A stretch of DNA of 28,630 nt. Source: a virus. The stretch lies in UHGV virus genome UHGV-0195556. One strand, given 5' to 3'. Each line of letters starts with the position of its first letter. The first letter of the stretch is position 1. Positions 1,211 to 26,698 of this stretch are shown one piece after another. The notes under the pieces were generated by a model. It had not been told where the DNA came from. It saw only the letters and a list, made by a program, of their open reading frames with translations, and did no database searches. Both the position numbers and the translations under genes were made by a program.

Positions 1211-1453
1211 GTGAAGGACATAGCCATGAGCTTATTGCCTCGGGAAAACGCACCCCAAAAAAGATATAGACTTCTGAGAATATCAGAAGTGATTAATTTG
1301 ACTGGCTTACCCAAGTCAACAATTTATCTAAAGATAAAGAATGATGAATTTCCGAACCAAGTTTCTATCGGTTCTCGTTCTGTTGCATGGGTGGAGCATG
1401 AAGTTAATGAATGGATAGAGAAGAATATTCTCAATAGAAAATTAAACTCCTAA
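1211..1453 (+). CDS. AlpA-family phage regulatory protein (small DNA-binding activator/excisionase-like)
   Basis: 80-aa ORF with MerR-like HTH typical of AlpA family; first gene inside the att boundary; AlpA is a marker of P4-like satellites. Confidence 0.7.
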   Translation: MKDIAMSLLPRENAPQKRYRLLRISEVINLTGLPKSTIYLKIKNDEFPNQVSIGSRSVAWVEHEVNEWIEKNILNRKLNS

Positions 1454-1470
1454 ATTGAGGTGGCAAATAT

Positions 1471-2331
1471 ATGGTTGACAATGTTTTTAAGAAGAAATTG
1501 GCATCAATTAAGAACGAACATGTGTCGGTGTTAGATAGTTACAAAGTAAGATCATTTAAAGAGACTCATAGCGACACGGCCTGTATTGTGCGTATTATTG
1601 AAATATATTCACTGAATAAGCTGCGAGCTAAAGGTGAAAAGCTGTATTCACTTACGGGGTTAACAGTACCTGATACGGAAACTGTGGCGAATGAGATCAA
1701 CCTGCTCCTGAGCCGTTATGCCCAGTTGTGTCGTCAGGAAGAGGAAGAGTTATCTTTCCGGCAGCGTGAAGTGACAAATGCGGAAGTTGCATGGAAAAGC
1801 ACATTCTCAAAAAACGGCGTCAGTAGCATTGCTGAAGCCAAAACGAATAAAATGGGGCATGCTGAACGAGCGGATGCTGAACGGTATTACCATCTGGCTG
1901 TTTCCCGGTTGAATGAACAACATAGTCGATTGAGCACGATCAAGCTTTTGCCGGGAGTACTGGCCGATGAAGGAAACTACATTGGGAAGGGAATCGATAA
2001 GCGTTTACTGAATATATTTCCTCAATCCGGCCAGATCCCTGCTGATTTTATTTCTGTATTTAATGACAGTGACGTTGTCCGTGATATTAAATTTATTACT
2101 GATGCACTCAAGTCTTTATCTGATTCCGTGAGTGAAATTATTAGTCGTTGTAGCGTTCCAACTGATCGTTATGTATTAAATAACGGTGGAATGGCAAGAG
2201 CTATGGCTTACAGGGAGTACTATCGAGCAGATAATTATGTATTACGTTCAGTCGTAAGTGACCGGGATTATGTTGAGCATGTAATGAAATACAATCTGGT
2301 TACTGAGTACAAAAATAAAATCTTTTCTTAA
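1471..2331 (+). CDS. hypothetical protein; candidate capsid-assembly factor by position (immediately upstream of capsid homologue)
   Basis: 286-aa ORF with RBS (GAGGTGG) 18 nt after the alpA stop; no family recognised by eye; does not match my recollection of P2 gpO or P4 Sid/Psu. Confidence 0.45.
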   Translation: MVDNVFKKKLASIKNEHVSVLDSYKVRSFKETHSDTACIVRIIEIYSLNKLRAKGEKLYSLTGLTVPDTETVANEINLLLSRYAQLCRQEEEELSFRQREVTNAEVAWKSTFSKNGVSSIAEAKTNKMGHAERADAERYYHLAVSRLNEQHSRLSTIKLLPGVLADEGNYIGKGIDKRLLNIFPQSGQIPADFISVFNDSDVVRDIKFITDALKSLSDSVSEIISRCSVPTDRYVLNNGGMARAMAYREYYRADNYVLRSVVSDRDYVEHVMKYNLVTEYKNKIFS

Positions 2332-2353
2332 ATACTTAAAAAGGTGAAAAACT

Positions 2354-3358
2354 ATGTATGCCTTCAAAACTGAAAGGCCGGACGCAGCACGTCGTTATCA
2401 TAATAAATTCGTCACTGGCACTAACTATCAGGAAGAATCAAACAGACGCTTTGCATTAAGCGAACCTACTGAAAATATACTGCGTACCTCAATTCTGGAA
2501 TCCGGGTGGCTTATTAAAAATATTACCCTACGTGATGTTAACGCCGTGTCAGGTAATGCCGTCAATATTGGTGCCAGTGAACTGTATACCGGACGTGTGG
2601 ATGGTGGCCGTTTCCACAAAAAAATGGCAATCAATGGTACGGAGTTCTTTCTGACAGAGACGGATACCTGCGCCCGGATCAGCTATTCCGATATGTCTCA
2701 TATTTACCATACCGGCGTGCCGGATGAGTTTGAGAAAACGGTTGAGAGCTTTTTTGCCCAGGCATATGCGCTGGACATGCTGCGGGTCGGTTTCAACGGT
2801 GTGTCGATTGCAAATACTACAAACCCGGAAATCAATAAAAAAGGCGAGGATGTCAATATTGGCTGGCATGCACTGGCGAAAGCCTACGGGAACGGAAAGC
2901 AAATCATCTCTGAGCCTGTCACTCTGGGAGAGACTGGCACCTGGAAAAATATTGATGCTCTGGCCAACCATCTGATTACAGAGCTTATTGCTGAGCAGTT
3001 TCGTGAAGATCCTCGTCTGGTTGTACTGGTTGGGGCAGAGCTGGCAGCACATCAACGCCTGAAGTTATTTAATGCCGCAGACCGCCCGTCTGATGTGAAT
3101 GCGGCACAGATGGCTACAAGTTCTGTTGCTGGCCGCTTTGCGTTTATTCCCCCGTTTATGCCGGGTAAGCGTCTGGCAGTAACGACGCTGGATAATCTGC
3201 ATATTTACACTCAGGCGATAACACGCTGGTTTCGTGCTGAGTTTGATGATGAAAGCAGTGAATACGTGCATTCCTACCTGCGCAATGAAGGTTATGCACT
3301 CGGTGAACCTGAACTGTACGCGGCTGTTGATGAGTGCACCCTGACGTTTGCGGATTGA
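2354..3358 (+). CDS. P2-family major capsid protein homologue (GpN-like)
   Basis: 334-aa ORF with RBS; colinear blocks match recalled P2 gpN (VGFNGV vs AGFNGV; DPRLVVLVGAEL vs DPDLVVIVGRQL; LDNLHIY vs LENLSIY; ESGWL vs ESSDFL). Confidence 0.65.
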   Translation: MYAFKTERPDAARRYHNKFVTGTNYQEESNRRFALSEPTENILRTSILESGWLIKNITLRDVNAVSGNAVNIGASELYTGRVDGGRFHKKMAINGTEFFLTETDTCARISYSDMSHIYHTGVPDEFEKTVESFFAQAYALDMLRVGFNGVSIANTTNPEINKKGEDVNIGWHALAKAYGNGKQIISEPVTLGETGTWKNIDALANHLITELIAEQFREDPRLVVLVGAELAAHQRLKLFNAADRPSDVNAAQMATSSVAGRFAFIPPFMPGKRLAVTTLDNLHIYTQAITRWFRAEFDDESSEYVHSYLRNEGYALGEPELYAAVDECTLTFAD

Positions 3359-3371
3359 CTTAGCGACAGAA

Positions 3372-3398
3372 AGACCCGCTCAGAGGCGGGTCTCGTTT
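3372..3398 (+). terminator. putative rho-independent terminator after capsid gene
   Basis: Inverted repeat AGACCCGC / GCGGGTCT with 6-nt loop followed by a short T-containing tract. Confidence 0.4.
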
Positions 3399-3496
3399 AC
3401 AGCATCAGGAAAAATGAAGAACTATTTTTAAGCAGAGGCTTAAGCATGCCAGCGTTAATTAATCCAGGCAATGATCAGTTTTCGGTTATAAATTTC

Positions 3497-3526
3497 TTGC
3501 CTCACCAGGAATGCGCGGGATATAGT
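3497..3526 (+). promoter_or_regulatory. putative sigma70 promoter driving the immunity/replication operon (P4 PLE analogue)
   Basis: TTGCCT then 18-bp spacer then TATAGT, located upstream of the seqA-like element. Confidence 0.3.
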
Positions 3527-3556
3527 TTAAAGGTTGCCGCAAAATCGGCAGCCGGG

Positions 3557-3581
3557 CGTAGGAACCCGTGTTATCTGAAGG
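3557..3581 (+). promoter_or_regulatory. seqA-like target site of the immunity RNA
   Basis: GCGTAGGAAC...TATCTGAAGG, repeated at 3781-3821 and complementary to 3735-3756. Confidence 0.5.
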
Positions 3582-3588
3582 CGATACT

Positions 3589-3611
3589 ACACGCGCTAGG
3601 CGTGTTTTTTT
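3589..3611 (+). terminator. rho-independent terminator directly downstream of the seqA-like site (immunity terminator candidate)
   Basis: Stem ACACGC/GCGTGT with 5-nt loop followed by TTTTTTTGTGT. Confidence 0.55.
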
Positions 3612-3696
3612 GTGTCGCAGCTTTGACTCACCTAAAATTTATGGTGTGGTGGCTGATTGTATTTTTTTATTTTTTACGCCACATCATCAGAATTAT

Positions 3697-3775
3697 GGTA
3701 GTCCAGGCGGGGCAGCTTTCGGGCTGGCCGGTATCCTTCAGAGCCGGTATTCCTACCCCCGTCTGGGCTACCACC
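3697..3775 (+). ncRNA. structured small RNA, P4 CI-RNA-like immunity factor candidate
   Basis: 16-bp closing stem GGTAGTCCAGGCGGGG / CCCCGTCTGGGCTACC (two G-U pairs) enclosing internal hairpins; interior segment CCTTCAGA..TTCCTAC is complementary to both flanking seqA/seqC-like repeats; no credible ORF. Confidence 0.5.
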
Positions 3776-3780
3776 CATGA

Positions 3781-3821
3781 GCGTAGGAACTCCGGTGGTA
3801 GCGTTACCCGCTATCTGAAGG
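3781..3821 (+). promoter_or_regulatory. seqC-like target site of the immunity RNA
   Basis: Second copy of GCGTAGGAAC...CTATCTGAAGG immediately upstream of the RBS of the next CDS. Confidence 0.5.
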
Positions 3822-3832
3822 AGGTTGCCATT

Positions 3833-4036
3833 ATGGCTACAGTCCCTGCTTTATCTCACCCTGAATTTACCTTTGTCTTTCTGGCTGTCCGCCGTACAGA
3901 CCGTGATGCCCGTCCACGCCCTGTGCGTGTAATCGCAGAATGCGAGCATGCTGCACGCCTTAAACTTGCCACTGAATTTATCCTGAGCTTTGCTGCCCGT
4001 ATCCCTGTGAAAAGAGCCGGGGAGGTGGTTGCATGA
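3833..4036 (+). CDS. hypothetical protein (first gene of the replication operon)
   Basis: ATG preceded by GAAGGAGG; stop overlaps the next start (ATGA); the 196-aa track ORF 3446-4036 is rejected upstream of this ATG. Confidence 0.5.
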   Translation: MATVPALSHPEFTFVFLAVRRTDRDARPRPVRVIAECEHAARLKLATEFILSFAARIPVKRAGEVVA

Positions 4037-4269
4037 AATCCATGAATTTTAAGCAAGGCTGCATATTGAGTGAACAGGGGGAGAGTCGTCTGTTACGGGC
4101 GGCACTGGCCAGTGAGTTTCTTGCAGAGGTCTTGTCCGTGCCCACAGTGAATGGAGCGAGAACTGTTTCAGCGGAAGGCGCTGCGGCTTTAGTGGCCTGT
4201 ATTGCCGAACAACTGGATGGCGTTGTTAAGGAAACCAGCACAATTAAGGGAGTGATGCGCGATGAATAA
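4033..4269 (+). CDS. hypothetical protein
   Basis: 78-aa ORF translationally coupled to neighbours on both sides. Confidence 0.5.
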   Translation: MKSMNFKQGCILSEQGESRLLRAALASEFLAEVLSVPTVNGARTVSAEGAAALVACIAEQLDGVVKETSTIKGVMRDE

Positions 4270-4672
4270 TAATCAAAATTTAAAGGCGCATGCTTTACGA
4301 ACAGCAGTCTTACGCTACTACATTGCTGATGCATTCATTTCCTTAATGGTGCGTGTTCATAATGAACCTGTTTATATTGAAGATGGCGAACGAATAGAAC
4401 TCTCCCACGAAAAAGTGGTGAGTAATATTATTTACCATATTGAAATGCCGTGGGTGAATGAGTTTGGGGCTGATGCTGGTTGCATACTGGCCGCAGAGAA
4501 ACTGGAAAAAATGCTTAAACCAGGCTTTATGTCAGAAAATATTCGCCTGTCAGTTTTTGGTGTCACAGAGATGCGTGAGGTTTACCGGGATATTATTTTC
4601 GGAGCACCTGATGGCGAACTACCCGAAGGTTTTGAATTTGTGAAGCCGGAAGGTCAGGAGGTGCTGCTGTGA
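4262..4672 (+). CDS. hypothetical protein
   Basis: 136-aa ORF; stop overlaps the GTG start of the primase gene. Confidence 0.5.
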   Translation: MNNNQNLKAHALRTAVLRYYIADAFISLMVRVHNEPVYIEDGERIELSHEKVVSNIIYHIEMPWVNEFGADAGCILAAEKLEKMLKPGFMSENIRLSVFGVTEMREVYRDIIFGAPDGELPEGFEFVKPEGQEVLL

Positions 4673-7356
4673 AAACACCGTCTGTATCCACGATTTCCGG
4701 AGCTGCAATTGGGCGCTGGCCTTATATCCTGTCAGCATTAGGTATTAAAGTACCGTCCGCAGGACATCATGGGGCTTGCCCTGCCTGTGGTGGAAAAGAT
4801 CGTTTTCGACTGGACGATAAAGCGGGGCGAGGGACGTGGTTTTGTAATCAGTGCGGTCATGGCGATGGTCTTGATCTGGTTCGTCTGGTGACAGGAAGAA
4901 AGATAAAAGAAGTCGCCGGGATGGTATCTGAGGCGCTTGCATTACCAGAAATACAGGAGAAGCCCGCATTGCCAGCCAGGAAAAAGGCCGCAGGAAAAGA
5001 AGCGGGCGCGGAGCGATATACCAGACTCAGACAGCAGTCCTGCAATGGTGAGCCGGTCTATCTGACAAATAAGAGCTTACACGGGTATTCACTTCCCTTG
5101 CTGTCACAGCCTTTGAATCTGGCCGGAATAACATTTTCCACCGGTTCATTACTGCTGCCTTTGACGGATATTTCCGGGAATATTACTGGTGGCCAGCTTA
5201 TCAATCCTGACGGGGATAAAAGTCTGCTGCCCGGTAGCCAGCTGTCTGGCGCATTCATTGCCCTGACCGATATACCCGCTGAAACACCTGAACAGGTGAT
5301 TATCACTGAGGGTTTTGCCACGGCGCTTACCGTCAGTCTGCTGACTGAAGGATGGATCGTGGCGGCTGTCGCTGCCACCAATTTACTGAAGGTGACGGAG
5401 CAGATCCGAAAACGCTGGCCGGAAACCCGGATCATTCTGGCCGGAGATAATGATCTGGCTGACGGCAAAGAAAACACCGGGCGTATTCAGGCAGAGAAAG
5501 CCGCCAAAGCGGTGGATGGCTGGGTAACGCTCCCTCCGGTACGCCATAAGGCTGACTGGGATGATTATCGGCAGGAAGTGGGGAAAGAACGGGCGAGAGA
5601 TGCCTTTCGTGAAGAAATGACGCTGCATGGCAAAGGGCAGACCCGTTTACCAGAAGGGTTCCGGCTGACAAAAGAATATTTGTGGTACGACAAGCTGGTT
5701 AATAAGTCTGATGGTGATACAGAGATACGTAATATCAAAATTTGCAGTCCGTTGCGGGTGACGGCAATCACCAGTGATGCTGATGGAAGTAATTACGGGC
5801 GTTTGCTGGAATGGGAAGATACCAACGGAAACAGCCGTAAATGGGCAATGCCGATGGAGATGCTGGGCGGTAGCGGGGAAGAACTGCGCCGCGTTCTGCT
5901 GGTTAACGGGCTTTCTTACATCAACATTAACGGCATGGCCAGAGCATTCCTGATGGAATATATCTCGCTGTGTAAACCGGACAGAAAAGTAACCTGTGTG
6001 AATAAAACTGGCTGGCACGGCGGGGTTTACGTTCTCCAGGATGAAGTGATAGGGCGCGAAGCCCAGTCAGTCATCTTACAAACATCGAGTGTGCAGGGGC
6101 GTGATTTTCGTGTCAGCGGCACATCAGAGGGCTGGCGTGAAAATATAGGCCGTTATTGCATAAAGAATGCCCGTCTTGCCTTTGCGGTGAGTCTGGCATT
6201 TGCTGCCCCCCTTCTGAAACTGGTTGGTATCGGCGGTGGAGGTTATCACCTCAAAGGGGAATCCACAGACGGTAAAACCACGACGATGAAAGTGGCTGCA
6301 TCAGTATGTGGTGGAACAGATTTCTGGCATACGTGGCGGGCGACGGGGAATGCCTTAGAAGGAACGGCGAGCCGCCGCAATGATGCCACGCTGATGCTGG
6401 ATGAAATCCGGGAGGTTGACGGCAGGGAGGCGGGAAATATCGCTTATATGCTGGCTAACGGGCAGGGCAAAGCCAGAGCCAGAACAGATGGTTCGGTAAG
6501 GGAAACCAACCGCTGGAATCTGTTGTTTCTGTCTACCGGGGAACTGTCACTGGTAGAGCATGCGGCAAGCGCCGGGGAACGTACGTATGCCGGGGTTGAG
6601 GTCAGAATGATCCAGATCCCAAGCGATTCGGGCAAGTATGGCGTGTTTGAAGAACTTCATGGCTTCAGTAGCGGGAAAACCCTGGCTGAGCATCTTGAGC
6701 AGCACGTAGCGCATTATCATGGTGCACCATTCCGCGACTGGCTGTATTGCCTGACCGCTGATCTGCCGGAACTGACCAGTCAGGCGAAAGCCTTATTGAA
6801 AGAGTATACCCGAAGGCTGACGCCGGAAAATGCCGGGAATCAGGTTGGCCGGGCTGTTACCCGTTTTGCTCTGGTTGCGATGGCCGGGGAGCTGGCCACA
6901 AAAGCGGGCATCACAGGATGGCCGGAGGGAGAGGCCTTTCGTGCCGCTCAAAGCTGTCTGGCTGCATGGATGGCTGACCGGGGCCATACAGCTAATCAGG
7001 AAGATAAAGCGGCACTTGAACAGGTTCGGGACTTCATGACGCGTAATCAGTTCAGTCGGTTTGCTGACTGGAATGACGACAGGAACCGGCCTGTTTCAAT
7101 GATGGGATTCAGAAAAGTCGATAAAGGAGACAACGTGACAGAGCCGGTTGTGACGTTCTACGTTCTCCCGTCAGGCTGGAAGGAGATCTGTAAGGGATTT
7201 GACTCGCGTAAGGTGGCCAGGTTGTGTGTGGACGCGGGCTGGCTGAAACCCGGTGAAGATGGCCGGACGCAAAACAGCATTCGCCTGCCAGAAATAGGGC
7301 TTAAACGTGTGTACCAGTTCAATACACAGGTACTGGGAAGCGCTGAACCTGAGTGA
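4669..7356 (+). CDS. P4 alpha-like bifunctional DNA primase/helicase (zinc ribbon + TOPRIM + P-loop NTPase)
   Basis: 895-aa ORF with GTG start after AGGAGG; N-terminal CPACGG...CNQCGH zinc-binding motif; TOPRIM-like ITEGFATAL..AGDND; Walker A GESTDGKTT. Confidence 0.8.
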   Translation: MKTPSVSTISGAAIGRWPYILSALGIKVPSAGHHGACPACGGKDRFRLDDKAGRGTWFCNQCGHGDGLDLVRLVTGRKIKEVAGMVSEALALPEIQEKPALPARKKAAGKEAGAERYTRLRQQSCNGEPVYLTNKSLHGYSLPLLSQPLNLAGITFSTGSLLLPLTDISGNITGGQLINPDGDKSLLPGSQLSGAFIALTDIPAETPEQVIITEGFATALTVSLLTEGWIVAAVAATNLLKVTEQIRKRWPETRIILAGDNDLADGKENTGRIQAEKAAKAVDGWVTLPPVRHKADWDDYRQEVGKERARDAFREEMTLHGKGQTRLPEGFRLTKEYLWYDKLVNKSDGDTEIRNIKICSPLRVTAITSDADGSNYGRLLEWEDTNGNSRKWAMPMEMLGGSGEELRRVLLVNGLSYININGMARAFLMEYISLCKPDRKVTCVNKTGWHGGVYVLQDEVIGREAQSVILQTSSVQGRDFRVSGTSEGWRENIGRYCIKNARLAFAVSLAFAAPLLKLVGIGGGGYHLKGESTDGKTTTMKVAASVCGGTDFWHTWRATGNALEGTASRRNDATLMLDEIREVDGREAGNIAYMLANGQGKARARTDGSVRETNRWNLLFLSTGELSLVEHAASAGERTYAGVEVRMIQIPSDSGKYGVFEELHGFSSGKTLAEHLEQHVAHYHGAPFRDWLYCLTADLPELTSQAKALLKEYTRRLTPENAGNQVGRAVTRFALVAMAGELATKAGITGWPEGEAFRAAQSCLAAWMADRGHTANQEDKAALEQVRDFMTRNQFSRFADWNDDRNRPVSMMGFRKVDKGDNVTEPVVTFYVLPSGWKEICKGFDSRKVARLCVDAGWLKPGEDGRTQNSIRLPEIGLKRVYQFNTQVLGSAEPE

Positions 7357-7380
7357 TTATCGCGTGAGTCTTATTTTTAT

Positions 7381-7570
7381 GAGGTAACACTGGTAACAGA
7401 GGTAACACCCGTTACTGATGCGGTTCTTCAGTGTTACCAGTCAAAAATACTGACTGGTAACAGAGGTAACAAAAAATGGTGTGTTACCACGCGTTACCTC
7501 TTGATTTTGCTAACTGGTAACAGATTAAATCCTTTTAAATCAATAGCGTTACACGTGTTACCAGTGTTAC
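7381..7570. repeat. iteron array, candidate satellite replication origin
   Basis: At least 9 copies of GGTAACA / TGTTACC in both orientations within about 190 bp immediately downstream of the primase gene; resembles P4 type-I iterons (TGTTCACC) as recalled. Confidence 0.6.
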
Positions 7571-7638
7571 ACGTTCAGAACAAGAGGTAGGGATCCAAAT
7601 CCCTTCTTCTGGCGGGCAACAGTATAGGGCACAGAACG

Positions 7639-7911
7639 ATGAAGATGATGAGAATGTACTGCCCCACATGTCAGGCAGTAGCACGGATAGGTAAAACAAA
7701 CAGGAAACACCCACAACTGTACGATGTGTACTGCTATTGCTCTAATGTGGAGTGCGGTCACTCGTTTGTGATGAATGTTGCTTTCTCCCATTCCGTTAGT
7801 CCAAGCGCGCTGAACGGGCAGGGAAGGGTTAAAGAGCTGATTGATGCAATTCCACCCGAGGAACGGGAAAAGGCTTTAAAGTTGCTGCTGGCTGCGCAAA
7901 AGAATGGGTAA
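7639..7911 (+). CDS. Ogr/Delta-family zinc-finger late-gene transcriptional activator
   Basis: CPTCQ...CYCSNVEC four-cysteine motif as in P2 Ogr / P4 Delta; exact start codon uncertain (several in-frame ATG). Confidence 0.7.
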   Translation: MKMMRMYCPTCQAVARIGKTNRKHPQLYDVYCYCSNVECGHSFVMNVAFSHSVSPSALNGQGRVKELIDAIPPEEREKALKLLLAAQKNG

Positions 7912-8590: not shown

Positions 8591-9472
8591 ATGAGTCATA
8601 ATAAAAAGGAATATGCTAAATTTTTCCGTCGCCCCATTTTTTCATCCTTAGCAAAAGGTAAGGATATTTCGGATTTATTTGGGAGTTTTGATTCTTACTG
8701 CTATGAAACACTGTTTTCAAACAATGATAATAATGAACATGAGATTTCACTAAGGGATTTATTTACATCATTATATGATTTTTTGCGTCTGAATTATAGA
8801 AATGAATATGTTTATAAGACAGCACTTGTCAATAAAATAATATTCGGTAAGCACAGCCCAAAAACAAGTTCGTCGTCCATAGAGTTACCAATTAAAAACT
8901 CTATAGTGGATGTTGCGGTGTTTAATGGTACGTCTACAGCTTACGAGATTAAGACAGAGTATGATTCACCAAAAAGGTTGATTACTCAAGCCCCTGATTA
9001 TTTGGATGTTTTTGATAAAGTGTATATAGTTACACATCCAGAGTATGCAAGTAAATATTGTGCTTTAAATCTCCCCAGAGTGGGAGTTATGGTTTTGAAT
9101 AAAAAAGATCAATTGAGTGTCATTAAGGAGGCAGATTCAAATATTGATTATATTAAAAGTGACAGCTTGTTTTCAGTTCTTAGAAAGGAAGAGTTCTTAG
9201 CTATAATAGAAGATTACACTTCAACTAAAATAAATATGCCTAACGGATTGGTTTATGAATATTGTAAAGAGATATTCATGCAGATGCCATTAAACATAGC
9301 AAATAAATACTTTATCTCTGCTATGAAAAAAAGATGTAACGATAAAGTTTTTTTGGATTATATTTATTCTCTTCCAGCATGTTTACGTGTTTTAGGTTAT
9401 GCAACACCATTATCAAGAAAGCAAAAAGAATTCATCATGAATTTGATGGATGTAAAAATTAAAATTTGTTGA
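8591..9472 (+). CDS. hypothetical protein with PD-(D/E)xK-like nuclease motif; cargo gene A
   Basis: 293-aa ORF in strongly AT-rich DNA; motif SIELP...IVDVAVF...AYEIKTE fits an E...D...ExK restriction-endonuclease-like signature. Confidence 0.55.
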   Translation: MSHNKKEYAKFFRRPIFSSLAKGKDISDLFGSFDSYCYETLFSNNDNNEHEISLRDLFTSLYDFLRLNYRNEYVYKTALVNKIIFGKHSPKTSSSSIELPIKNSIVDVAVFNGTSTAYEIKTEYDSPKRLITQAPDYLDVFDKVYIVTHPEYASKYCALNLPRVGVMVLNKKDQLSVIKEADSNIDYIKSDSLFSVLRKEEFLAIIEDYTSTKINMPNGLVYEYCKEIFMQMPLNIANKYFISAMKKRCNDKVFLDYIYSLPACLRVLGYATPLSRKQKEFIMNLMDVKIKIC

Positions 9473-9493
9473 TATCCTCAGGAGTTGTAAGTT

Positions 9494-10444
9494 ATGTATA
9501 GCCCATATTTGTATGCGAGAAGTACAGAGTTATTATGCCTTAGGGACCTCGTTGCGAAGGGAGTTAGCCTAAATGGTCTGCTACCAATTTTAGAACCAAT
9601 TAACGTCAATACGAGAAATTTATTAACATGTTTAAATGTTTGGAATTCTGACATAATTGTTATCCTTAATCCTTATCAGGAAGATTTTTCTTCACACAAT
9701 AACGTCTTAACTTTAAATCAAAATTTATCAAGTGTATTAACAAATAAAAATAATATCATCTCTGGATATCTTATTCAGCCCAATACAACGATTAATGATA
9801 TTAATAATTGGTTGAATGCTAACTTAAATAGACGAGTTGCACTTCTATATGATAATCCATCATTATCCAACTCTGATATTCAGTTGTTGGCGACAAATCA
9901 ATTGATTAGTTATCATGTTGTTTTAAATAATAAAATGCTTCCTAATCAGTGCGCTCTTCTTCCTTTGTCGAAGTTAATTATTATTAGCGATAACTTTAGA
10001 AAGTTAGCAAAAAATGCTGATTATAATGGGCCGGAACTTTTCACGCACGCACATCAATTCGTGGGACAAAATTACTTAGGATTTGGCGATTATACAATTA
10101 CTGGCCAGGTACTAGATCTTGGAGGTGGTCAACCTTCTGCTGTTGCCGCACATTTGGTGTTCAAGAATTTACAAGCGAATACAGTTTGGATTCGTCATTT
10201 TGTATCAAGCAACACGCAACGAGGAAGTTCAAATGTTACTGCAAAATTTTTAGATGTTTCAGATCAAATTACAAATCTTGTTCCCCAACATCCAACCCAG
10301 TTTGGCAGCAACATTGGTCTTAACTATTATTATTACAATAGTCAACCAACTGTAAGGCATTTCCCTGGGTTGCCAAAAAACAAACAGTATCAAATTACTC
10401 ACCATATTTGTTTCATGCTGGATTTAATAGCAGGTCGTATTTAA
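9494..10444 (+). CDS. hypothetical protein; cargo gene B
   Basis: 316-aa ORF with AGGAG RBS 21 nt after gene A, same AT-rich composition; contains GFGDY and LDLGGGQPSAVAAH motifs; 3' end overlaps the convergent integrase by 21 bp. Confidence 0.55.
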   Translation: MYSPYLYARSTELLCLRDLVAKGVSLNGLLPILEPINVNTRNLLTCLNVWNSDIIVILNPYQEDFSSHNNVLTLNQNLSSVLTNKNNIISGYLIQPNTTINDINNWLNANLNRRVALLYDNPSLSNSDIQLLATNQLISYHVVLNNKMLPNQCALLPLSKLIIISDNFRKLAKNADYNGPELFTHAHQFVGQNYLGFGDYTITGQVLDLGGGQPSAVAAHLVFKNLQANTVWIRHFVSSNTQRGSSNVTAKFLDVSDQITNLVPQHPTQFGSNIGLNYYYYNSQPTVRHFPGLPKNKQYQITHHICFMLDLIAGRI

Positions 10445-24256: not shown

Positions 24257-24618
24257 CAATGGATTATTCACAGTTAAGTGATTTTGAAATTAACAAGCGA
24301 GTGGCAATTTGCTGTGGATTTGCTCCCGAAGATTGCGAAATCGCAAAGTTGGGAACATCAATCGTTGGTGTTGAGTGGGATGACGAAACTGGTTATGCAA
24401 TAAAAACGGTTGATTACTGTAAAAGCCCATCAGACGCAGAGCCGATTATCGTAGAGAACAGAATTGGAATTATTCCAGCACCAGAAAATGGATTATGGAA
24501 GGCAGCGCATAGAAAAGTTGGCGGTGATAGTACCCCATATCATATGACTCAAGATGAAAACCCACTCCGCGCTGCCATGATTGTCTTTCTCATGATGCAG
24601 GACGCCAATAATGCTTAG
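24253..24618 (+). CDS. hypothetical nin-region protein
   Basis: Start taken at MTMDYSQ overlapping the ninE stop; family not recognised. Confidence 0.45.
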
Positions 24619-25326
24619 CCCATCCCAATCCATTCAATACCAGAAAGAAAGCGTCGAGCGAGCTTTAACGTGCGCTAACTGCGGTCAGAAGCTGCATGTG
24701 CTGGAAGTTCACGTGTGTGAGCGTTGTATATATGAATGCTTAAATATGGTGGAACATAATGAGAAATATAAGCAACATAGACGAATTAAGAAATAAATTA
24801 TCATATGATGATGTTTTAGGTGTACTTAGATGGAAAGTGTCTCCTTCTAATAATGTTAAGGTTGGCAGTGTTGCTGGTTACATTAGGAGTGATGGTTATA
24901 GGATGTTAACTATCGATGGTGTAATTACTTATGCTCACCACGTTATATGGATGATAAATAATGGTGAGATTCCATTAGGGTATAAAATTGATCATATAAA
25001 TGGAGTAAGGTCAGATAATAGGCTATCTAATCTTCGATTGGTTACACACCAACAGAATGCACAGAACCAAAAGAGAAAAATAACCAATTCGTCAGGAGTG
25101 ACTGGAGTATATTTCAATAAAGAGAGATGTAAGTGGATTGCGAATATATGCGTAGATGGGCGCACCAAATATCTTGGAATATTTGCTAGCATCATTGACG
25201 CTATTGCAGAAAGGAAGAGGGCAGAAAAAGAACTGGGTTTTCATGAAAACCATGGCAGACCATAACTGCGCAGAACTGATGAGCGATCCGAATAGCTCAA
25301 TGTACGAGGAAGAAGACGATGAGTGA
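24611..25326 (+). pseudogene. ninF: ninF interrupted by a 539-bp insertion carrying an HNH endonuclease gene
   Basis: Codons 1-39 (24611-24727) match recalled lambda NinF up to HVCE(H/R)C; the remainder CAELMSDPNSSMYEEEDDE is encoded at 25267-25326 in a different frame. Confidence 0.65.
24759..25265 (+). CDS. HNH homing-endonuclease-like protein (HNH + AP2-like DNA-binding region)
   Basis: IDHINGVRSDNRLSNLRLVTHQQN HNH motif; AT-rich; sits exactly inside ninF. Confidence 0.75.
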   Translation: MRNISNIDELRNKLSYDDVLGVLRWKVSPSNNVKVGSVAGYIRSDGYRMLTIDGVITYAHHVIWMINNGEIPLGYKIDHINGVRSDNRLSNLRLVTHQQNAQNQKRKITNSSGVTGVYFNKERCKWIANICVDGRTKYLGIFASIIDAIAERKRAEKELGFHENHGRP

Positions 25327-25531: not shown

Positions 25532-25814
25532 CCTACGCAAAGAAGCGCGCGGCAGAGAATGCCAGGTACGTATTTACGGCGTATGCAATGGCAATCCTGA
25601 AACTACAGTTCTGGCACATTACCGGATGGCTGGAATTTGCGGAACGGGAATGAAGCCTGACGACCTGATCGGCGCATGGGCTTGTAGCGCGTGTCGCGAT
25701 GAAATCGACCGACGCACCCATAATCTCGACAACAAAGACGCCAGACTTTACCACCTCGAAGGCGTGATCAGGACGCAGGCGATACTGCTGAAGGAGGGGA
25801 AGATTAAGTCATGA
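25524..25814 (+). CDS. ybcO: YbcO-like protein (DUF1364, predicted nuclease)
   Basis: RGRECQVRIYGVCNGNPETTVLAHYR...CSACRDEIDRRTH resembles recalled DLP12 YbcO. Confidence 0.65.
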   Translation: MANLRKEARGRECQVRIYGVCNGNPETTVLAHYRMAGICGTGMKPDDLIGAWACSACRDEIDRRTHNLDNKDARLYHLEGVIRTQAILLKEGKIKS

Positions 25815-26335
25815 ACGGTAAAAGATATCCAACACAAAAAGAAATCAATGAATTGTATGAATATAATAGCGAAACAGGTTTGTTTATATACAAGAGAAGA
25901 GAAAGTGCAAGAGAGTGCTGGAATTCAACATATGCCGGTAAGATTGCTGGTTCTATAGATGAAAAAGGATACGTTCGTATATCTGTAAATAAAAAAGTTT
26001 GTCGAGCTCATAGAATCGCATGGATATCCTTTTATGGAAGTGAACCTGATGGGGAAATTGACCACATAAATGGAGTTAAAAGCGATAACAGAATATGCAA
26101 TTTGCGCGTTGTAGATGATAAACAGAACTCAAGGAACAGAAAAAAGCCTATTAATAATCGCTCTGGAGTAATGGGGGTTGCCTACTATAAGAAGAATAAA
26201 AAGTGGGGCGCATATATAAACAGTGATAATAAAAAGATATTTCTTGGATTATACGATGACATATCTCTAGCCGTTAATGCCAGAAAATTGGCGGAATCAC
26301 GATTGGGGTATCACCATAATCATGGGAGAGGATAA
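25811..26335 (+). CDS. HNH homing-endonuclease-like protein (paralogue of 24759-25265)
   Basis: IDHINGVKSDNRICNLRVVDDKQN HNH motif plus GVMGV..KKW..AYI AP2-like region; AT-rich; wedged between ybcO and rusA with overlapping start/stop codons. Confidence 0.75.
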   Translation: MNGKRYPTQKEINELYEYNSETGLFIYKRRESARECWNSTYAGKIAGSIDEKGYVRISVNKKVCRAHRIAWISFYGSEPDGEIDHINGVKSDNRICNLRVVDDKQNSRNRKKPINNRSGVMGVAYYKKNKKWGAYINSDNKKIFLGLYDDISLAVNARKLAESRLGYHHNHGRG

Positions 26336-26698
26336 ATGGCAGAATACAGATTCACACTTCCGTACCCACCGTCGCTGAATACCTACTGGCGAAGACGGGG
26401 AAGCCAATATTACATAAGCGACAAAGGCCAGAAATACCGAAAAGACGTTCAGCAAATCATCCGCCAACTCAAGTTAGACATTTTCACCAAATCACGACTC
26501 CGTATCAAAGTCATCGCAGACGTTCCGGACTCCCGCCGTCGCGACCTCGACAACATCCTGAAAGGTTTACTCGACTCCCTTATCCACGCCGGATTTGCGG
26601 AAGACGACGAGCAATTCGATGACATTCGCGTAATTCGTGGCGTGAAAGTACCAGGCGGAAGGCTTGGAATAAAAATCACCGAACTGGAGAACGCATGA
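26336..26698 (+). CDS. rusA: RusA Holliday-junction resolvase
   Basis: PPSLNTYWRRRG...RRRDLDNILKGLLDSL matches the RusA family. Confidence 0.85.
   Translation: MAEYRFTLPYPPSLNTYWRRRGSQYYISDKGQKYRKDVQQIIRQLKLDIFTKSRLRIKVIADVPDSRRRDLDNILKGLLDSLIHAGFAEDDEQFDDIRVIRGVKVPGGRLGIKITELENA

Follow-up and report, generated by a model that had tools for sequence, protein, structure and literature searches.

Work on free-standing homing endonucleases has dealt almost exclusively with virulent phages such as T4, T5, SPO1 and ICP1. In the intronless homing of the T4 seg and mob genes, a break in a genome that lacks the gene is repaired off the carrier genome, and flanking markers are co-converted (PMC2988022). 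Some free-standing HNH-type genes lie inside a coding sequence and leave the host gene in two pieces, namely mobE, which splits nrdA in Aeromonas phage Aeh1, mobA, which lies beside gene 60/39 of T4 and splits the topoisomerase gene, and the gene in nrdD of Felix O1-like phages (PMC2988022, PMC4837284). Here we describe a 539-bp insert in ninF, a gene of the nin region of lambdoid and P22-like phages, found in a P22/lambda-like prophage in UHGV virus genome UHGV-0195556. The DNA analysed was a stretch of 28,630 nucleotides, which we call the window. The insert is most probably a homing endonuclease gene of the HNH(HNN)-AP2 type that is free-standing, with neither an intron nor an intein, and resides at one specific ninF site.

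The HNN-AP2 architecture is already known for free-standing genes of Xanthomonas phages, T1, T5 and ICP1 and belongs to His-Me finger group 2. Genes of Xp10, OP1, Xop411, T1, Rtp, T5, ICP1 ('IPA-HNH'), cyanobacteria and ciliates have the same domain order as the ninF element and, like it, no zinc-binding Cys dyads. The phage genes among them share further traits with the ninF element: they are free-standing, AT-rich and of small size, their distribution is patchy, and some copies have decayed (PMC2248197, PMC10448857, PMC5714182). A related enzyme is I-HmuI of Bacillus phage SPO1, an intron-encoded HNH nicking enzyme that, according to the title of reference 90 in PMC2988022, initiates homing with a nick.

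Results

Structure of the interrupted ninF gene

The ninF reading frame opens with an ATG at 24611, follows NinF up to 24727 and then continues through 22 codons of foreign sequence to a stop at 24794-24796. The predicted product, NinF', has 61 aa and consists of a zinc-ribbon fragment to which the insert adds a new basic tail (IYECLNMVEHNEKYKQHRRIKK). The insert has a GC content of 35.1% vs 49.7% for ninF. Beyond it, the last 19 codons of ninF resume in a different frame (25267-24611 = 656), with no evident ribosome-binding site of their own, and their stop codon and the start of the following gene overlap (ATGAGTGA). The acidic 19-aa C-terminus is probably not expressed. The nin genes have been described as non-essential (PMC8022706), and a split ninF should therefore be tolerated.

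[quoted passage not shown] This frame relation is retained in a diverged copy of the insert, L153 (see below), despite a 27-nt difference (MAD-PNGQMLEKDDG there), and the ATG stands without a visible Shine-Dalgarno sequence. It may be in frame by chance.

The original prediction, made from the sequence of this region, had placed the insertion exactly between codons 39 and 40 of ninF and held that the 39 upstream codons match lambda NinF. We fetched the lambda sequence and found NinF to be VIDQNRSYEQESVERALTCANCGQKLHVLEVHVCEHC/CAELMSDPNSSMHEEEDDG (full product VIDQNRSYEQESVERALTCANCGQKLHVLEVHVCEHCCAELMSDPNSSMHEEEDDG; the slash marks the insertion point here and below), which confirmed the match. 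The claims of an AT-rich insert consisting mostly of an HNH ORF and of a NinF remainder in another frame were also borne out. The two window halves tile ninF of lambda and of phage vB_EcoP-683R2 (683R2) with zero bases missing or duplicated. Joined, they form a 58-aa NinF whose sole difference from the NinF of 683R2 is H38R. The prediction that deletion of 24728-25266 restores a lambda-like NinF thus stood as far as the clean tiling is concerned, but the product is NinF H38R and not the wild-type allele; the restored gene matches no empty allele that we found.

Empty sites read ...CAC TGC/TGC GCA and the occupied site reads ...CGT TGT(ATAT...CATAAC)TGC GCA, with the ends of the insert in brackets. 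The junction is therefore ambiguous by 1 nt, which the original prediction had missed: its placement, 24728-25266 with a synonymous TGC>TGT change, is one of two equally good ones, the other being 24727-25265 without this change. In the second placement, the insert ends exactly on the HNH stop codon. Clean empty sites were found on alignment with ninF of lambda and of 683R2, and also on more than 170 IMG/VR prophage contigs. The canonical empty site (CEHC allele) is GTGTGTGAGCACTGCTGCGCAGAACTG; that of the CSDC allele is TGCTCCGATTGC.

The inserted gene encodes a predicted HNH-AP2 endonuclease

The insert protein starts with an N-terminal beta domain; residues 58-102 or so form an HNH domain of the HNN type, and an AP2 fold spans residues 112-160 approximately. 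By Pfam sequence search HNH_3 passed the cut-off, and AP2 scored 15.4 bits, under the cut-off of 33.3 bits; several homologues carry a precomputed PF00847 hit. In an AlphaFold (AF2) model made with 65 homologues (mean predicted local distance difference test score 91.6), the C-terminal 50-59 residues superpose on the plant AP2 domains of TEM1, AtERF1 and WRI1 with root-mean-square deviations of 1.8-3.2 Å and probabilities of 0.99-1.0. The best Foldseek match in the PDB was I-HmuI (1U3E; E=8.5e-4, probability 1.0), which was also the only PDB sequence hit. Residues D78, H79, N91 and N100 are invariant or nearly so across the 65 homologues and align with D74, H75, N87 and N96 of I-HmuI. Sequence and structural model thus both point to an endonuclease of the HNH_3/I-HmuI group with a predicted AP2 DNA-binding domain. 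By analogy with I-HmuI, the enzyme may nick one strand near the insertion site. The nearest phage protein relatives, from Klebsiella and Escherichia siphoviruses, are about 50% identical.

Distribution in prophages

At an identity of at least 98.3%, the insert occurs at 47 places in 45 of 5426 complete Escherichia coli genomes, and among the matches listed all copies lie between two NinF annotations. The same genomes contain ninF at 2118 places (1695 genomes), which gives an occupancy of about 2% of loci. In IMG/VR we recovered 29 copies, full or cut by a contig end, and the recoveries by junction pattern and by protein were identical; one further copy (L184) is truncated within the insert. 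A metagenome scan added four near-identical copies, each of them in ninF. The ninF junctions agree in all copies, so the insert is a precise presence/absence polymorphism at one site, and its recurrence in these collections shows that the pattern did not arise by chance.

The exact HNH protein is present on at least 1000 contigs, with E. coli and E. albertii as source names. The 61-aa NinF' with the insert-encoded tail has also been named from Salmonella enterica (P0117), in a form identical to the product of the IMG/VR copy L021. At the DNA level, the insert was found in zero of 50,697 sequenced phage records, and an exact 40-mer and protein-based scan of GTDB species representatives yielded no insert.

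In the genome of E. coli E2348/69, one prophage has an occupied ninF (735798-736336) and prophage PP4 has an empty one, GAGCACTGT/TGCGCAGAACTT (L203:20680-20850; NC_011601.1 1056679-1056849). The PP4 allele departs from the canonical site by a T at each of positions -1 and +14 (counted from the insertion point). PP6 contains no ninF, and we did not locate the third ninF locus that has been reported in this genome.

Two kinds of annotation can mislead searches for the element. RefSeq phage records call YbcO (DUF1364) beside ninF 'HNH endonuclease'; we rejected these entries as relatives of the insert gene. Some partial copies of the insert protein appear in NCBI as 'serine/threonine protein phosphatase, partial'.

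Evidence for movement between ninF alleles

All copies with readable flanks (30/30) have CGT TGT at the left junction. Beyond these two codons, the insert lies on at least 18 haplotypes of the ninF 5' part, including both major N-terminal types, and on nine haplotypes of the 3' part, and most of the occupied flank haplotypes also exist without the insert. Homology to the window mostly ends inside ninF or at its borders, and the neighbouring genes vary between copies: the upstream gene is ninE or ninX, and on the downstream side lies ybcO, ninG or a gene for a KilAC antirepressor. Insert haplotypes are shuffled relative to flank haplotypes.

Nucleotide diversity in the same copies was 0.005 for the insert vs 0.029 (-80 to -6) and 0.018 (+1 to +55) for the flanks, so that the insert is about four to six times less diverse than its surroundings. 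The corresponding flanks of empty alleles gave 0.034 and 0.017, essentially equal to those of occupied alleles; these figures are biased, because the empty alleles were gathered with patterns that fix part of the flanks. An individual case is L021, which differs from the window at 1/539 positions of the insert and at 12/177 positions of the ninF flanks.

In site-by-site Fisher tests, association with the insert was limited to positions -5, -4 and -1. Single-nucleotide polymorphisms (SNPs) at -80, -76, -67, +33 and +37 segregate in the occupied and empty classes alike, and the frequencies of the first three differ weakly between the classes (uncorrected p 0.01-0.04). The confinement of the association to three sites implies that the moving unit is the insert with less than about 25-30 nt on each side. 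In a linked block as short as this, any initiating break would lie at or very near the insertion point. Taken together, these results suggest that the insert copies itself into the ninF of other phages.

Linked substitutions and a hypervariable patch in ninF

The change from CAC TGC to CGT TGT comprises three substitutions that are fully linked to the insert. They were present in 34/34 occupied alleles vs 0/122, 0/122 and 4/122 empty alleles (Fisher p = 4e-35 to 3e-30). The carrier site is thus altered in two ways, by the split and by these substitutions; residue 38 also varies among empty alleles. We looked for empty CGT TGT alleles, which precise loss of the insert would leave as scars. IMG/VR held no empty allele with CGT at codon 38, and none of 210 phage ninF records matched the reconstructed CGT TGT empty site exactly over its full length. 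Among 31 E. coli records with at least 99% identity to this site, the 12 listed exact matches were all in two pieces, i.e. occupied.

The substitutions overlap or adjoin an 8-nt patch of high variability. In 177 empty alleles, the mean per-site heterozygosity of the patch was 0.267 vs 0.025-0.034 in other unconstrained parts of ninF; this sample (L001, L033-L152, L203 and L206-L274) was drawn with the central 30 nt left free and is biased, because the flanking 21 and 17 nt were fixed by the search pattern. The variability of the patch thereby exceeds that of the remaining conserved ninF by a factor of about 8-10. Its main alleles are CEHC (TGT GAG CAC TGC; 72%) and CSDC (TGC TCC/TCA GAT TGC, where the slash separates alternative codons; about 19%), and rarer ones are CEYC and CEAC (TGT GAA GCG TGC, with two extra synonymous changes just upstream). 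Each allele occurs on many backgrounds. Carriers have CERC, and L153 has CEKC.

The patch may be the core of the recognition site of the endonuclease. The two residues in the CxxC knuckle may also be simply free to vary. It is conceivable, though we regard it as doubtful, that the patch belongs to the recognition site and diversifies under attack, with cutting selecting for variants that escape at the DNA level; the linked synonymous changes would then be explained too.

Selection on the endonuclease gene

Within the E. coli lineage, 11 of the 19 polymorphic sites of the ORF are synonymous and eight are non-synonymous, whereas 21% synonymous sites would be expected (p = 4.6e-4). A more distant comparison is provided by L153, which shares 81% of its nucleotides and 85% of its amino acids with the window copy. 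L153 occupies the same site of a diverged ninF, with GAG AAA TGT as left flank and with a remnant of the ninF 3' end followed by ybcO downstream. One junction is shorter by 27 nt and the HNH stop is thereby lost, so that the ORF extends to overlap the ybcO start. Between the window ORF and the L153 lineage, dN/dS (the ratio of non-synonymous to synonymous substitution rates) was 0.07 at a dS of about 1.2. A value this low at such a distance, in copies at the same site, indicates that the enzyme was kept functional for a long time while resident there.

Expected expression and proposed homing mechanism

No sigma-70-like promoter was predicted on the + strand between 24000 and 26500, and structure that would hide the HNH ribosome-binding site was not significant (z = -1.41). 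With no promoter found and a Shine-Dalgarno-like GGTGGA ahead of its start codon, the endonuclease would be made from the early-right (pR-type) transcript in lytic growth and would be silent in lysogens. The co-residence of an empty and an occupied ninF in E2348/69 fits such silence; resistance of the PP4 allele is an alternative explanation.

We propose that homing would begin when the carrier prophage is induced, or when it grows together with another lambdoid phage, and the early-right transcript crosses the nin region. The enzyme would then be translated from its own ribosome-binding site. In a genome without the gene, it would recognize intact ninF at about ...GTG TGT GAG CAC TGC/TGC GCA GAA... 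and nick or cut it, and recombinational repair off the carrier genome would copy the 539 bp and a few bases of the flanks, as proposed for the T4 genes. The carrier allele would be protected by the insertion, which splits the site, and also by CGT TGT in place of CAC TGC. We see it as a tentative possibility that the ninF alleles record an arms race with a gene drive of temperate phages that is still active across E. coli, E. albertii and Salmonella prophages, with unusually short conversion tracts and a break, possibly a nick, at the insertion point.

Alternative explanations

A self-splicing element, either a group I or II intron or an intein, would allow intact NinF still to be made. The insert does lie within a coding sequence, and the upstream exon would end in U (TGT), like group I 5' splice sites. 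In a search of both strands between 24300 and 26500, however, Rfam gave no family at E<=10, Intron_gpI included, and the RNA of the 539-nt insert is no more structured than shuffled sequences (z = -0.55). The ORF takes up 507 of the 539 nt and leaves 31 nt upstream and 1 nt downstream as non-coding, which agrees with the original prediction that a group I ribozyme has no room. The last base of the insert is C or A, whereas group I introns end in G, and its start, ATATAT, is unlike the GUGYG of group II introns. We therefore rejected a group I intron with an endonuclease ORF. An intein was rejected as well, since the length of 539 is not divisible by 3, a stop codon within the insert ends the ninF frame, and the HNH ORF, which has a start and a stop codon of its own, is read in a different frame from either ninF part. 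We consider a self-splicing element almost certainly wrong. An insertion sequence or transposon was likewise rejected: the insert has neither inverted nor direct terminal repeats, its junctions show no target-site duplication, and the HNH nuclease gene is its sole ORF. The prediction of a free-standing homing endonuclease gene is supported by these negative results together with the HNH_3/AP2 family and the clean empty sites. The outcome that had been named as its refutation, related phages lacking a clean empty site, did not arise.

Several findings weigh against an active homing endonuclease gene, and some of them leave room for a passive passenger, which would have entered ninF by one illegitimate insertion, encode an enzyme that is inactive on ninF or otherwise employed, and have been moved since by general recombination of the nin region. 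Empty ninF alleles show all four gametes for SNPs only 29 bp apart, and such a high background of recombination could contribute to the shuffling; the diversity figures carry the sampling bias noted above. The element is known only from prophages, is absent from the isolated phages searched and occupies only about 2% of loci. In E2348/69, empty and occupied ninF reside together, which means that there was no conversion in the lysogen, that the empty allele is resistant or that the enzyme is inactive. Some copies are damaged: in L024/L186 (IMG/VR 3300023488_000025), a single G inserted at insert position 281 shifts the HNH frame, either in a decaying copy or through a metagenome assembly error, and two others are truncated at about window positions 24836 (L184:1-120, IMG/VR 2690316345_000015) and 24866 (hit H100 in E. 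coli Eco_70239). The sequence adjoining the truncation in L184 resembles a terminal repeat of IS1 (GGTAATGACTCCAACTTATTGATAGTG). A young neutral insert with so little diversity should nevertheless have kept mostly to its founding haplotype, yet its flanks are almost as diverse as those of empty alleles, and even the Salmonella-type allele of L021 carries a nearly unchanged insert. Strong purifying selection on the ORF also requires a function, and in family, architecture and its nature as a free-standing AT-rich gene the element resembles known homing endonucleases (PMC2248197, PMC5714182). We thus consider a passive passenger unlikely. Purifying selection over a long time at one site would also suit a domesticated nuclease that benefits its carrier, for example through marker exclusion of ninF-intact lambdoid phages or by stimulating recombination, with copying as a side effect. 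Around the gene lie ninB, rusA and ybcO, with which the phage carries out its own recombination, and the hypervariable patch beside the site fits an enzyme whose cutting harms its targets. The molecular steps would be identical to those of selfish homing, and nothing separates the two in this respect; but a gene with no promoter of its own found is probably silent in lysogens and unable to protect them, and low frequency and decaying copies better fit a selfish cycle of gain and loss. Domestication is, in our judgement, very improbable, and we retain the homing endonuclease gene as the explanation of the insert.

Genomic context and a second element in rusA

The coordinates of all features are collected in Table 1. 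In the stretches compared, which cover 1201 bases around ninF and both endonuclease inserts of the nin region, the window and a prophage of E. coli Ecol_276 are 100% identical; the 1201-base stretch is also identical in MNCRE44 and 875. Annotation of the whole window shows a P22/lambda-like prophage with genes for an integrase, a TorI-type excisionase, Erf, an anti-RecBCD protein, N, a cI-like repressor, Cro-like and CII proteins and a DnaB-type helicase, followed by the nin region, Q, holin and lysozyme. The order in and after the nin region is ninB, ninE, ninX, ninF', HNH, 'ninF, a 70-aa ORF, ybcO (DUF1364), a second HNH gene, rusA, ninH and Q. The PGAP annotation already shows an 'HNH endonuclease' between two 'NinF' pieces.

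The prophage adjoins a P4-like satellite remnant near dsdC. This remnant, between dsdC and the prophage, includes genes for an ogr/Delta-like zinc finger, a DUF927 primase-like protein, an Icd-like protein and a P2-family capsid protein. A sce7725/sce7726 gene pair adjoins the prophage integrase gene.

A second HNH-AP2 gene is inserted just after codon 2 of rusA; its 174-aa product is 40% identical to that of the ninF element. It lies 550 bp downstream of the ninF element. In empty phages, the ybcO stop and the rusA start overlap (AAGTCATGAAC/GAATAT). The inserted endonuclease gene starts at the old rusA ATG AAC and brings a new Shine-Dalgarno sequence (GGAGAGGA) and ATG GCA, which leaves rusA intact. 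This element is present in 33 of the 5426 E. coli genomes, and among the copies checked both elements occur together only in L022 and in Ecol_276-type prophages. With such a paralogue in rusA, the nin region hosts more than one element of this kind.

Table 1. Positions of the ninF element and of other features. Coordinates are those of the window unless another sequence is named.
Feature	Position	Strand	Basis or remarks
ninF 5' part, codons 1-39, with both CxxC pairs of the zinc ribbon	24611..24727	+	Pfam NinF E=6.4e-12; alignment to lambda and 683R2 ninF; PGAP 'protein NinF' WP_044342114.1
Hypervariable ninF patch, 8 nt (-10 to -3)	24718..24725	+	codon 36 third base, codons 37-38, codon 39 first base
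Three insert-linked substitutions	24723..24727	+	A>G 24723, C>T 24724 (His38>Arg), C>T 24727 (synonymous or part of insert)
539-bp insert	24728..25266 (equally well 24727-25265)	+	35.1% GC; no terminal repeats, no ribozyme
Shine-Dalgarno-like GGTGGA	24748..24753	+	read from sequence; 6 nt from GGTGG to HNH start codon
HNH-AP2 endonuclease gene, 168 aa	24759..25265	+	Pfam HNH_3 70 bits, E=1.2e-19; PHROG 99 'HNH endonuclease' E=3e-70
ninF 3' remnant, CAELMSDPNSSMYEEEDDE and stop (last 19 NinF codons)	25267..25326	+	alignment to lambda/683R2; PGAP NinF pseudogene fragment
Second HNH-AP2 gene, in rusA	25811-26335 (525-nt insert ~25817-26341)		35.5% GC
P4-like satellite remnant and sce7725/sce7726 regions	1226-7911 and 8591-10444		annotation
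L153 copy of the insert (P0002), 81% nt / 85% aa identity	L153:1-909, Logan contig SRR25288770		after ...CAT GTT TGT GAG AAA TGT/ATATATG of diverged ninF

Comparison with known systems

In the literature we searched, no paper linked ninF with an HNH or homing endonuclease. The element is of a known kind that had not been described at the ninF site. Its presence accounts for the two fragments as which ninF appears in the annotation of hundreds of E. coli assemblies, and it does not constitute a new kind of system. Its value lies in its setting: it sits in the lambda/P22 family, than which no genetic system is more tractable, with a defined 30-bp candidate target, natural alleles that are empty, occupied, decayed or possibly resistant, and a second element next door in rusA. 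It could be used to measure homing, the length of co-conversion tracts, initiation by a nick versus a break and escape of target sites, in temperate phages and between co-resident prophages, and it could show which sequence an HNH-AP2 enzyme reads.

The genes most similar in their position are mobE, mobA and the nrdD gene, which likewise split their host genes. Their hosts are virulent phages, whereas the ninF element is carried by a temperate prophage. The enzymes interrupted by them are essential and their halves reassemble; ninF, in contrast, is non-essential and its 19-aa piece has no visible translation signal. Moreover, mobE and mobA belong to a different HNH group from HNH_3/I-HmuI (PMC5714182).

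I-HmuI is the best structural match and shares the D-H...N...N residues with the ninF protein, but the identity is only about 20%. A group I intron encodes I-HmuI, which binds DNA through NUMOD and helix-turn-helix modules, whereas the ninF protein is free-standing and has a predicted AP2 domain. The HNN-AP2 genes of Xanthomonas phages showed no conserved flanks, and their insertion was regarded as sequence-independent (PMC2248197); the ninF element, in contrast, is found at one exact site, even in the lineage with 81% identity. The free-standing enzymes of T4 usually cut at a distance of at least hundreds of bp from their own gene, whereas linkage in ninF is confined to less than about 25-30 nt on each side, which suggests a break at or beside the insertion point, as with intron-encoded enzymes. 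The ninF element thus differs from its precedents in its temperate host, in a dispensable target gene that is not reconstituted, in its fidelity to one site across two lineages and in a very short conversion block.

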